Origin: an uncultured Polaribacter sp.
Lineage (GTDB): Bacteria; Bacteroidota; Bacteroidia; Flavobacteriales; Flavobacteriaceae
Length of the DNA: 64,000 nucleotides
Reading direction: 5' to 3'
NCBI GenBank assembly: GCA_947497755.1
Contig: CANMHT010000004.1
Span: 209,589-273,588 of the forward strand
Shown: positions 52,490 through 60,950 of the stretch, one piece after another
How the letters are laid out: each line of letters starts with the position of its first letter
How positions within the stretch are numbered: the stretch's first letter is position 1
Translations under genes and position numbers: made by a program
Notes under the pieces: model-generated
Seen by the model: the letters and a program-made list of their open reading frames with translations, nothing else
Told to the model about the DNA's origin: nothing
The model's database searches: none

Positions 52490-53590
52490 CTATTTATTTA
52501 CGGTAAAAATCTCTTTTAACTGTTTTACCATATTACCATTACCGCCAAGTGTAATCTCACCAATCTTATCAGCAATTTTCTCTACATACTCCATTTCTTT
52601 TAACTTAAACAACATTTCATTGTTTTCCATTAATTTGGCTGTATTTAATAAGCTTCTAGTAGATGCTGTTTCTTCTCTTCTAGTAATAATATTTGCTTGC
52701 GCTCTTTTTTGGGCAATTAAAACTTGATTCATGATTTCTTTCATATCTCCAGTTAAAATCACATCCCTAATTCCGCAGTTAATTACCTGAATCCCTAGTT
52801 GATTCGTATTCTTAGCTACATCTTCAAATACAGCCGTTGCAATACTTTCTTTTTTCTCTAACAACTCATCTAAAGTATAAGCTCCAACATAACTTCTTAA
52901 AGCCAATTGCATTAAAATATATAATTGTTTTTCGTAATCCTTGTTTTCTAACAAGGCTTTTTCAACATTCGTTACTTTATACTGTGTATAAAAGTTAATT
53001 CTAATGTTTGCTTTGTCTTTGGTTAACAATTCTTGACCAGCAATTTCTAATTGTAACTGCCTCATATCAACTTTTGCTATTTTAATAGTTGTATCATTTT
53101 TCCAAAACCTATAAGTTCCTCCTATTAAGGTTTTAGTATAAACATCATCAACTAATAACACTGCTTTTTCATAAGCAGCAACCTCAAAAGTTCTGATATA
53201 TTTAGTCAATTGATTATTACTAAATAAAGCTTTATCAATATTCTCTGTGATATATACTTTACTTCTATCTACTTTGTAAAATTTTCTATCTAAAAAACCT
53301 TTCCAGTACACATAATTACCTGCTTCCAATACATATTTAAAATTGTTTCTTTCGTACACTAATACGATTTCATTATCCTTTACTTCAACAATTTCTAACA
53401 TTGCAGCTAAAGTGCTATCTTTTAATAAAATTTCTATTGCTACAGCAGTATCAAACTGTTTAGTTAAATCATAAATTCTTACTTCTTGATTTAAAAACAA
53501 CCAGTAATTTCCTTCTGTAATCACTTTTTGGTAATCATCTTTTTTGAAAACCAAACCTACTTTTCCTTTGTTTATTCTTACTATTTTCAT
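52490..53590 (-). CDS. Slipin-family SPFH/band-7 protein
   Basis: GQELLTKDK..R.N, IRDVILTGDMKEIMNQV, REETASTRSLLNTAKLME; likely start MKIVRINKG at 53590. Confidence 0.9.
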   Translation of the reverse strand: MKIVRINKGKVGLVFKKDDYQKVITEGNYWLFLNQEVRIYDLTKQFDTAVAIEILLKDSTLAAMLEIVEVKDNEIVLVYERNNFKYVLEAGNYVYWKGFLDRKFYKVDRSKVYITENIDKALFSNNQLTKYIRTFEVAAYEKAVLLVDDVYTKTLIGGTYRFWKNDTTIKIAKVDMRQLQLEIAGQELLTKDKANIRINFYTQYKVTNVEKALLENKDYEKQLYILMQLALRSYVGAYTLDELLEKKESIATAVFEDVAKNTNQLGIQVINCGIRDVILTGDMKEIMNQVLIAQKRAQANIITRREETASTRSLLNTAKLMENNEMLFKLKEMEYVEKIADKIGEITLGGNGNMVKQLKEIFTVNK

Positions 53591-53926
53591 TGTATTTTTT
53601 TTATTAGAATAATTCAACATTTATTACATAATTTCTATCAATAGAAATTGTTTTTCTTAATTAAAAACGGTGCGTCCAAATGCTTAACTAAGCACGGAAA
53701 TAATCAATCTAAAAAAAGGCCGTTACTCATTTTTAAAAATGGATTGATATCGCAATATGAAATCAATTGATTGATAAAAAATCATTACTTTCTATTTTCA
53801 GTATTAAAAACTTCAAGTTCTTTTTTAAGTGTTTATTTAAAAACTCATTTAGAACACATCGTTTTTTTGTTTACCATCAGTTTTATAAGTTGATGAGCTT
53901 ACTTGATGAAATTAGTTCATCTTTCT

Positions 53927-53993
53927 CTAGAACCTAAATCTAGTGTCCTACCAATTAGACGATATCCATTAGGATAGTGGGACTCGAACCCAC
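53927..53993 (-). ncRNA. Circularly permuted tRNA mimic B (T-arm, closed acceptor hairpin, D-arm, full anticodon arm with TAG)
   Basis: gtggg-TTCGAGT-cccac / tatcc-taat-ggata / tcgtctaattggtaggac / ctaga-tttaggt-tctag. Confidence 0.8.
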
Positions 53994-54002
53994 ACATGAA
54001 AC

Positions 54003-54072
54003 TTCTATTGCTCTAACCAGGCTAAGCTACATAACTGCTGTTATGGAAGGATTCGAACCTTCGTACATAGAA
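54003..54072 (-). ncRNA. Circularly permuted tRNA mimic A (YrlA-like)
   Basis: ttctat-gtac-gaagg-TTCGAAT-ccttc-cataac-agca-gttatg-tagcttagcctggttagagc-a-atagaa; every stem pairs. Confidence 0.85.
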
Positions 54073-54318
54073 TTGTGATTATTTTTTGGTGAATAATCGA
54101 AACCTTCAAGTCAAGTTGCATATAACTATCGAATACATAAACTGTACGTAATTATACAATGGTGTTATACAGAAACACTCAACAAGACTTACTTGATATT
54201 TTTAGTTGTTAATGAACTTTTTAAAATGCCCCACTATACTTTATATAGCGAGGACTTTTGCAATTTTCCCACTTCACGTGTTCTTTTTCATAAATACGCT
54301 ACAAAGATTTCACCCTGT

Positions 54319-54337
54319 TACGCAATGATTTTGCGTA
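54319..54337. promoter_or_regulatory. Palindromic operator TACGCAA-N5-TTGCGTA, copy 1
   Basis: Perfect dyad 13 bp from the TTTG of a minus-strand -7-like element (AAtcTTTG, 54302..54309). Confidence 0.8.
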
Positions 54338-59845: not shown

Positions 59846-59853
59846 TTACTTAT

Positions 59854-59872
59854 TACGCAATCTTTTTGCGTA
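59854..59872. promoter_or_regulatory. Palindromic operator TACGCAA-N5-TTGCGTA, copy 2
   Basis: Between the divergent rtcB and WYL genes; same 13-bp spacing to a -7-like TTTG as copy 1. Confidence 0.8.
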
Positions 59873-59909
59873 GCAATAAGTATTTTCTATTTTTATCAAA
59901 AAAAATAAA

Positions 59910-60950
59910 ATGGCTTCAAATAAAAATGCGCTTATCAGATACAAAACTATAGACCAATGTCTACGAAACACAATGAAAAAGTGGACATTAGATGATTTAA
60001 TTGAAGCCTGTTCTGATGCCTTGTATGAATATGAAGGGAAAGATGTATATGTTAGTAAACGCACCATTCAATTAGACATTCAATTGATGCGTAGCGATAA
60101 ATTAGGATACAACGCTCCTATTGAAGTTTATGATAGAAAATACTATAGGTATGGAGAAAATGGATACAGCATAAAAAATATTCCTGTAACCGATAATGAC
60201 ATAAAAATTATGAATGATGCCATTCAAATGCTTCGTCAGTTTAAAGACTTTTCTTTATTTCAAGAAATGGATGGAGTACTACAACGGCTAGAAGATTCTG
60301 TTTATTCATCGCAAAAAAATAATCGTCCAATTATTCACTTAGAAAAGAATGAACAACTGAAAGGTTTAAAATACATTGATCCTATTTATGAAGCTATTCA
60401 GAATAAAAAAGTAATCAAAATTACATATCAATCTTTTAAAGCTCGAAATCCAAGTGATATAATTGTGCATCCGCAACTATTAAAAGAATATAACAATCGA
60501 TGGTTTTTATTAAGTATTACCAAAAAAAGACAATTTATAACTTTAGCACTAGATAGAATGTCTAATATCATTTATGAAGAAGCCGCAGAATATGATGATT
60601 TAAAAATTGATGGTGATACTTATTATAGAAATGTTATTGGAGCTACAGTATCAAATTCACGTGCTGAGCGCATTCAATTTTGGATTGACAAAGAAAACGC
60701 TCCTTATGTCATAACCAAACCTTTCCATAAAAGTCAACGCCTAATTAAACATACCAACGATGGAGTGATTTTTAATATTCTAGTGCAAATAAATTTTGAA
60801 TTAGAACGTAAAATCTTAGGGTTTGGCGATGCTATTGAAGTTCAAAAACCTCTGCGATTACGAAAACGTATGATTGAAAAATTAAATAAATCTATTAATA
60901 GATATTCTCTAACTGATAACGAAACCCAACAACTAAAAAATCCGTCTTAA
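59910..60950 (+). CDS. WYL-domain transcriptional regulator (wHTH-WYL-WCX)
   Basis: VSKRTIQLDIQLMR HTH; ITYQSF, HPQLLKEYNNRWFLL, LALDRM WYL motifs. Confidence 0.92.
   Translation: MASNKNALIRYKTIDQCLRNTMKKWTLDDLIEACSDALYEYEGKDVYVSKRTIQLDIQLMRSDKLGYNAPIEVYDRKYYRYGENGYSIKNIPVTDNDIKIMNDAIQMLRQFKDFSLFQEMDGVLQRLEDSVYSSQKNNRPIIHLEKNEQLKGLKYIDPIYEAIQNKKVIKITYQSFKARNPSDIIVHPQLLKEYNNRWFLLSITKKRQFITLALDRMSNIIYEEAAEYDDLKIDGDTYYRNVIGATVSNSRAERIQFWIDKENAPYVITKPFHKSQRLIKHTNDGVIFNILVQINFELERKILGFGDAIEVQKPLRLRKRMIEKLNKSINRYSLTDNETQQLKNPS

Follow-up and report, generated by a model that had tools for sequence, protein, structure and literature searches.

What does a tRNA-shaped RNA do for a cell when its parts follow one another in permuted order, its acceptor stem is sealed and it carries no anticodon? 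The question is raised by a 70-nucleotide (nt) element, module A, on the minus strand of a 64,000-nt stretch of DNA from an uncultured Polaribacter sp. of the Flavobacteriaceae (contig CANMHT010000004.1, positions 209,589–273,588; hereafter the window). A first-pass annotation made from the letters alone had described the element as a circularly permuted tRNA mimic opened at the anticodon loop, and had matched it to the tRNA-like module of YrlA. Here we find that module A is, on the evidence of its sequence, a circularly permuted, anticodon-less tRNA mimic with a tetraloop-sealed acceptor stem, that it lies within a multidomain RNA encoded upstream of a gene for an SPFH/Band-7 protein, and that it resembles YrlA in architecture without being a member of that family. 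We hold this anatomy, and the family assignment of module A and its RNA, to be very probably correct. As to function, the explanation that we judge best overall, with chances somewhat better than even, is an SPFH-linked multidomain RNA with a YrlA-type tRNA mimic engaged in RNA repair.

Read 5′ to 3′ along the minus strand, module A holds all the elements of a tRNA in permuted order, with the anticodon absent and the acceptor closed by a loop (Table 1), exactly as first annotated. In this L-shaped tRNA body a tetraloop seals the acceptor stem and the module's two ends pair to make the anticodon stem, which leaves it with neither a CCA end nor an anticodon. Of the closing stem originally proposed, TTCTAT/ATAGAA, the inner five pairs are conserved; the outermost T–A pair (54072/54003) is not conserved in relatives, and we therefore take the stem to be 5 base pairs (bp) long. 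The minimum-free-energy fold of the 70-mer reproduces the four-way junction. The folding-energy z-score is −1.4 both for the module and for a 261-nt region, and thermodynamics is therefore not taken as evidence for the fold. That tRNA finders would miss the element had been anticipated, and ARAGORN calls no tRNA in the window. An Rfam search found no family at its gathering score there, and the Rfam tRNA model returned only a sub-threshold chimera joining the D arm of module A to the T arm of a second module, B.

The fold is carried by comparison with relatives. BLAST recovered homologous DNA in 8 Tenacibaculum genomes, and a covariance model built for module A (R1), with genus hits counted at ≥60 bits, matched it in 47 of 267 genomes of that genus. 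Among the 35 distinct Tenacibaculum sequences, 93% of cells are paired, against 80% in shuffles and 37–46% with slid partners, and double-sided changes occur at 13 of the 21 pairs. Widening the set to the SPFH-linked loci of 20 or more genera of the Flavobacteriaceae gives 143 distinct sequences, in which 92% of cells are paired (67% in shuffles), double-sided changes reach 19 of the 21 pairs and all four helices covary. The two parts on which the first-pass annotation had staked its reading, the closed acceptor hairpin and the closing stem, both change in compensatory fashion: the hairpin at 5 of its 6 pairs within the genus and at all 6 within the family, and the stem at every position in the SPFH-linked Flavobacteriaceae loci, where its forms include TCTAT/ATAGA, TCTGT/ACAGA, TCAAT/ATTGA, TCTAA/TTAGA and GCTAT/ATAGC. 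The nucleotides that hold a tRNA together are likewise kept: U8, A14 and TTCGA (T54-T55-C56-G57-A58) are present in 78 of 78 sequences, the D loop carries GG in every one of them, and the Levitt pair 15–48 covaries (G–C in 71, A–U in 5, A–C in 2). The alignments were fitted to a covariance model and are biased towards the structure; the covariation is nonetheless robust, because of the slid-partner control and the variety of pair types. By these comparisons, module A is a genuine feature kept under strong selection. Some Tenacibaculum, as well as Winogradskyella and Aquimarina (L079, L114, L120 and others), have in place of the tetraloop a loop of about 20 nt on a 7-bp acceptor stem; RNase P cleaves the YrlA of M. 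smegmatis, whose stem is also 7 bp, and by analogy it could act on these versions too.

Searches from both directions tie the RNA to the SPFH gene. Starting from the RNA, an SPFH gene was found downstream in 39 of 39 loci; starting from the SPFH gene, a permuted unit on the same strand was found 350–800 nt before the ATG in 78 of 78 Flavobacteriaceae loci, these being the ones with sufficient upstream DNA, and at about 67 of the 78 an A-type unit is present. The annotated first ATG, at 53620, is probably not the start of the protein: relatives begin with MK(R/I)VRIN, which makes the ATG at 53590 (MKIVRINKGK) the likely true start. In none of the three loci scanned does a terminator-like site stand between RNA and gene; this absence is the only use made here of the sigma-70 scan for promoters and terminators, which performed at shuffle level and does not cover Bacteroidota promoters. 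The protein is stomatin-like over residues ~171–350 and contains no membrane segment. In its predicted structure, residues 1–110 form a confident all-beta N-terminal domain and the modelled fold matches ring- and cage-forming SPFH proteins; Foldseek also returned the major vault protein over the whole length, as a weak match with a low TM-score.

Module A is one part of a larger structured RNA of about 515 nt, running from about 54197 to 53683 and ending some 90 nt before the probable SPFH start, with a short A-rich stretch between its last domain and that start. Conserved sequence flanks the module on both sides in relatives. On its 5′ side, a domain of four helices (P1–P4) shows compensatory changes at 21 of 35 pairs in an RNAalifold alignment of 53 sequences; one P1 pair alternates between U–A (17), A–U (16) and G–U (15), and the abundance of G–U pairs favours an RNA structure over a DNA palindrome. 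A model of this 5′ domain (R2), run on 401 evenly sampled Bacteroidota genomes, found it in 7, in a single copy each and all in Flavobacteriaceae, and an exact-pattern scan of viral contigs for the domain gave no match. On the 3′ side, the 11-nt loop of a hairpin, YCUURUAAAAC, is nearly invariant across genera, and the region 53857–53683 shows compensatory changes at 31 of 55 pairs in an alignment of 14 sequences. This multidomain RNA is absent from Rfam, and we found no description of it in the literature searched. A long-range pairing of its two ends, suggested by the minimum-free-energy fold, is unsupported in relatives, which also show no repeat of the 10-mer (ATCAAGTAAG) flanking the mimics in this genome; the 10-mer is taken as a coincidence. 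As side observations, the near-invariant P4 loop offers a CCA-like motif next to the CCA-less mimic, and conserved TTCCGT motifs occur between the mimics and the SPFH start.

Directly downstream of module A follows another permuted mimic, module B, which differs in bearing a complete anticodon arm. Together with the degenerate T-like hairpin that follows, it scores 27.5 bits over positions 10–63 of the Rfam tRNA model (cut-off 29), and its counterparts in relatives exceed that cut-off. The anticodon arm matches that of the genome's own tRNA-Leu(UAG), CTAGA-CTTAGGA-TCTAG, at 15 of 17 positions, and module B of close relatives (loci L029 and L030) differs only at anticodon position 35, giving UAG, UCG or UGG. 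Depending on the species, a locus holds one to three such B-type modules, whose canonical 7-nt anticodon loops correspond across genera to Phe, Met, Lys, Asn, Leu, Arg, Asp, Glu and others. Elsewhere in the Flavobacteriaceae, other genera carry up to 7–8 tRNA genes, to all appearance genuine, immediately upstream of the RNA and on its strand, most often Gln-UUG, Phe-GAA, Arg-ACG and Leu (L079 7632–8341, L093 8017–8962, L089 7982–8596 and others), the last of them often only 20–40 nt from the 5′ domain; the window holds no such array.

Table 1 Features of the RNA, its modules and the neighbouring genes (positions in the window)
Feature	Position	Strand	Basis or remark
Module A, permuted tRNA mimic	54003–54072	minus	direct reading, Rfam local alignment, folding, covariation
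A: 3′ anticodon-stem strand TTCTAT	54072–54067	minus	direct reading
A: variable loop GTAC	54066–54063	minus	direct reading
A: T arm GAAGG-TTCGAAT-CCTTC	54062–54046	minus	direct reading
A: acceptor hairpin CATAAC-AGCA-GTTATG	54045–54030	minus	direct reading
A: U8 and A9, TA	54029–54028	minus	direct reading
A: D arm GCTT-AGCCTGGTTA-GAGC	54027–54010	minus	direct reading
A: A26	54009	minus	direct reading
A: 5′ anticodon-stem strand ATAGAA	54008–54003	minus	direct reading
A: conserved closing stem TCTAT/ATAGA, 5 bp	54071–54067 with 54008–54004	minus	
5′ domain	54077–54197	minus	RNAalifold, 53 sequences
P1	54196–54187 with 54116–54106	minus	
P2, hairpin	54178–54162	minus	
P3, long hairpin	54157–54120	minus	
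P4, hairpin with near-invariant loop N-CCAAAAA	54098–54077	minus	
Module B, second permuted tRNA mimic	53905–53997	minus	direct reading, Rfam, R1 32.2 bits
B: T arm	53993–53977	minus	
B: closed acceptor TATCC-TAAT-GGATA	53976–53963	minus	
B: D arm	53960–53945	minus	
B: complete anticodon arm CTAGA-TTTAGGT-TCTAG	53943–53927	minus	UAG loop, Leu-like
Degenerate T-like hairpin	53921–53905	minus	after the module B anticodon arm
3′ hairpin AAGC-TCATCA-ACTTATAAAAC-TGATGG	53874–53900	minus	comparison across genera
Small hairpin	53857–53829	minus	RNAalifold, 14 sequences
Long-helix domain, ~150 nt	about 53828–53683	minus	RNAalifold, 14 sequences
SPFH/Band-7 (stomatin-like) gene	52490–53620	minus	no membrane anchor; directly downstream of the RNA
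Dyad TACGCAA-N5-TTGCGTA	54319–54337		upstream of the RNA
TPR protein gene	54871–54344	minus	between prfH and the RNA
prfH, 230 amino acids (aa)	55567–54875	minus	226.6 bits; NCBIfam release_prfH equivalog cut-off 166.65
rtcB, 463 aa	57047–55656	minus	1.6 kilobases (kb) upstream
Gene for a 200-aa protein	58364–57762	minus	no family match; distal unit
Gene for an RtcB-like protein, 485 aa	59839–58382	minus	divergent; Pfam RtcB matches the C-terminal part only
Dyad identical to that at 54319–54337	59854–59872		in the gap that separates the WYL regulator gene from the distal rtcB-like gene
73-aa open reading frame	59846–60067		minus strand; overlaps the WYL gene start region
Divergent WYL-WCX regulator gene	59910–60950	plus	distal unit

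The likeness to YrlA holds for topology and stops short of membership. In a permissive local Rfam search, a step that the first-pass annotation had proposed, YrlA ranked first, with 30.3 bits where the gathering cut-off is 69 (E = 2 × 10−4 for 901 nt). The alignment spans model positions 18–91 of 114, which is the tRNA-like core, and leaves positions 1–17 and 92–114, the Ro-binding part, unmatched; at gathering score YrlA matches neither the window nor any of 7 related loci. The defining mark of a Y RNA is a terminal stem for Ro60 binding, and for YrlA only candidates lying no more than about 4 kb from rsr have been accepted (Chen et al. 2014, PMC4201824); a further trait of YrlA is that it serves as a substrate of TruB and DusA (pseudouridine-55 and dihydrouridine). 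We found no Ro60/TROVE gene in this 99.6%-complete genome and none in 40 other carrier genomes, with positive controls in D. radiodurans and B. thetaiotaomicron. Moreover, the pair beyond the 5-bp closing stem is unpaired in 18 of 32 sequences, and the flanks form separate local domains. With neither a Ro stem nor a Ro protein, module A is, as far as sequence can tell, not a member of the YrlA/Y RNA family as defined. The idea that the RNA is nevertheless a bona fide Y RNA binding a Ro60 ortholog draws on its best Rfam match and on a CUUGACU-like sequence in the 5′ domain. That segment belongs, by covariation, to the local helix P1 and not to a terminal 5′/3′ stem, so that its reading as a Ro-binding site was dropped; with TROVE genes absent from all 41 genomes, the idea is scarcely credible, and we regard it as refuted, barring a non-TROVE analogue of Ro.

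The neighbourhood of the RNA connects it to RNA repair. On the same strand, from upstream to downstream, lie rtcB, prfH, a TPR protein gene, the RNA and the SPFH gene. Among Tenacibaculum genomes, PrfH occurs in 45 of the 47 that have an A-type module, the two exceptions being 84% and 75% complete, and in 28 of the 220 that have none. The prfH and TPR genes adjoin the RNA in about two-thirds of Tenacibaculum loci, and rtcB in relatives is usually adjacent to the RNA or within 4–9 kb. The PrfH encoded here has a length that fits the size range of the PrfH-CT subfamily (225–250 aa), which is typical of Flavobacteriia and is reported to rescue damaged and intact stalled ribosomes (bioRxiv 10.1101/2025.01.09.632186); a search of that preprint for the term 'tRNA-like' found no occurrence. 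Upstream of the RNA stands a dyad that recurs, identical, in front of the divergent WYL regulator gene of a distal unit. These are the only two exact sites in the window, where 0.09 would be expected with mismatches allowed, and some 10 further Tenacibaculum loci keep the dyad at the same position, upstream of their RNA. The shared and conserved dyad therefore suggests a regulated promoter for the RNA–SPFH unit under a common regulator, and makes the dyad a candidate shared operator for a BrxR/CapW-like regulator.

How might such an RNA act in repair? We propose that a regulated promoter of its own, located behind the dyad, probably drives its transcription and probably that of the SPFH gene as well, and that the RNA would be the cognate partner of a soluble, ring- or cage-forming SPFH protein, the two making a Ro-less counterpart of the Ro–Y RNA particle. 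Its tRNA-shaped and presumably nuclease-resistant modules may then serve as handles or as substrate mimics, and the elbow formed by the D and T loops could recruit the RtcB ligase, or tRNA-processing or -modifying enzymes, to the SPFH scaffold during the repair of cleaved tRNA or rRNA and the PrfH-mediated rescue of damaged ribosomes. We rate this mechanism, an SPFH ribonucleoprotein cofactor, a tentative proposal whose chances fall a little short of even. Several observations weigh against it. An RNA-binding domain was not identified in the SPFH protein, and the strict upstream, same-strand position of the RNA, with no terminator between, would equally fit a cis-acting mRNA leader. Module A is not indispensable to the RNA, because about 11 of the 78 SPFH-first loci have no A-type module and their 5′ domain runs directly into a B-type module that has a D arm of type II and a complete anticodon arm (L059, L062, L063, L069, L071, L075, L083, L088, L100 and L118). 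Nor is the repair island always at hand: of eight loci inspected in which the genes are not adjacent, six have prfH and/or the TPR gene (and rtcB, where the span reached it) 4–9 kb away, and in the other two prfH, TPR and rtcB were not found within ~10 kb.

The leader just mentioned is the alternative that we take most seriously, although we consider it unlikely. The structured region would then be the 5′ untranslated region of the SPFH mRNA, controlling its stability, its processing (for instance where RNase P or RNase Z cut the tRNA-like modules) or its translation, with no function in trans. That the RNA always lies upstream of the SPFH gene, near it and on its strand, that the three loci scanned lack a terminator-like site and that covarying structure reaches to about 90 nt from the start codon all agree with this. 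However, about 515 nt of covarying structure with at least two complete tRNA bodies far exceeds what known leaders need, and co-transcription also precedes particle function for operon-internal non-coding RNAs such as yrlA and yrlB of rsr-yrlBA-rtcBA (bioRxiv 10.1101/312249); a leader and a particle are not mutually exclusive. Quite unlikely, in our estimate, is that the RNA is a bait or sensor, in which ribotoxins or anticodon nucleases would cut the modules that imitate tRNAs, and the products, or the loss of the RNA, would signal, putatively to the WYL regulator, to induce RtcB–PrfH; module A would be the constant scaffold and the B-type modules the bait loops. In its favour are the canonical 7-nt anticodon loops of many identities, and both a WYL-type regulator and a shared dyad are present. 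The near match of the module B arm to the tRNA-Leu(UAG) arm and the variation confined to position 35 agree with it too, neither being decisive, as does the proposal, made for Salmonella (PMC10159003), that RtcR is activated by 5′ tRNA halves with a 2′,3′-cyclic phosphate end. Against it, module A has no loop to cut, and the differing anticodons might reflect neutral drift or repeated acquisition from tRNA genes nearby.

Two further alternatives would make module A either a tRNA in waiting or the relic of one. As a permuted pre-tRNA, its ends would be joined by RtcB and its acceptor loop opened by RNase P or RNase Z, so that a functional tRNA results, a route known from certain algae and archaea. 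Module A shares its topology with permuted tRNA genes, a neighbouring gene encodes an RNA ligase, and the 7-bp acceptor stems with ~20-nt loops of some genera, together with the RNase P cleavage of M. smegmatis YrlA, lend the idea some appeal. But the closing stem has no anticodon-loop nucleotides beside it and its flanks lack conservation; the 4-nt loop on a 6-bp acceptor stem found here is a poor RNase P substrate; an equivalent of the splicing endonuclease has not been reported in bacteria; and the genome already holds a full tRNA set. On these grounds we rejected this reading, which we consider very improbable. As a decaying remnant of tandem tRNAs, a pseudogene junction of the T arm of one tRNA with the D arm of the next, the module would sit well with the real tRNA gene arrays directly upstream in other genera and with a dimeric tRNA, the proposed evolutionary origin of YrlA. 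Decay is at odds with a module that at least 20 genera have conserved, its pairs changing in compensatory fashion and its tertiary nucleotides invariant, and with acceptor strands joined directly by a tetraloop in a single copy per genome at a fixed position. As a description of its present state the remnant is hardly conceivable and we treat it as refuted, although it may describe how module A arose.

We thus return to the SPFH-linked RNA acting in repair. Its most far-reaching form, which we regard as speculative and distinctly improbable, would join it to the bait idea: the RNA would be an undescribed class of large multidomain RNA and a dedicated subunit of a soluble, vault-like SPFH cage, anchored by module A, with exchangeable tRNA-copy modules presenting real anticodon loops as bait for anticodon nucleases and with the WYL regulator and the dyad sensing the cutting and inducing RtcB–PrfH. 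If true, this would be a combined alarm-and-repair particle against attacks on the translation apparatus. Tied less closely to any one mechanism, tRNA mimics of the Y RNA type have so far been studied only as partners of Ro60, and here one is strongly selected for in bacteria that lack Ro. The locus offers a tractable system for the role of the YrlA tRNA-shaped module and for that of a cytoplasmic SPFH scaffold in RNA repair, as well as a well-supported alignment for a family missing from Rfam. It also suggests that published two-protein PrfH–RtcB models overlook one RNA and two further proteins found alongside the pair in Flavobacteriia.

Four known systems come close to this one. With YrlA (RF02553; PMC4201824; bioRxiv 10.1101/312249; PDB 6CU1), module A shares an identical order of elements, the absence of an anticodon loop and a CCA end, the retained tRNA tertiary nucleotides and a place beside rtcB; unlike YrlA, it has no Ro60-binding 5′/3′ stem and its genome no Ro60, it sits inside an RNA of ~515 nt with other domains, whereas Y RNAs measure 80–220 nt, and its linked protein is SPFH and not Rsr. 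The permuted tRNA genes of Cyanidioschyzon merolae and some archaea (PMC3978253) likewise place the 3′ half before the 5′ half, join the acceptor strands by a linker and form the anticodon stem from the transcript ends; they yield working tRNAs by way of a bulge-helix-bulge, circularisation and RNase P and RNase Z, whereas module A has no anticodon-loop nucleotides and an acceptor loop of 4 nt. The E. coli RtcB2–PrfH module (PMC9304027, PMC9223846, PMC13166195) resembles the island here in the adjacency of the RtcB and PrfH genes, and differs in that those studies, in the parts available, describe a two-protein system. The fourth is the b7a-tRNA ('band 7-associated tRNA'), which Burroughs and Aravind (2016) predicted to be encoded with RtcB and a Band-7 protein, here taken as relayed in bioRxiv 10.1101/312249, according to which YrlA also occasionally adjoins a Band-7 gene and both the b7a-tRNA and the Band-7-linked YrlA were unvalidated as of 2018; no later experimental work on a Band-7-associated tRNA-like RNA was found in the literature searched. 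In that account the b7a-tRNA (Nucleic Acids Res 2016;44:8525) bears a strong likeness to a genuine tRNA. Module A, by contrast, is permuted and lacks the anticodon arm, and the RNA combines this YrlA-like module with the more tRNA-like module B between family-specific 5′ and 3′ domains. Like the prediction as relayed, it is a tRNA-like RNA next to an SPFH/Band-7 gene, in 39 of 39 and 78 of 78 loci, with rtcB close by, and it fits the kind of Band-7-associated tRNA-like RNA foreseen in 2016, as a Ro-less, SPFH-linked variant.

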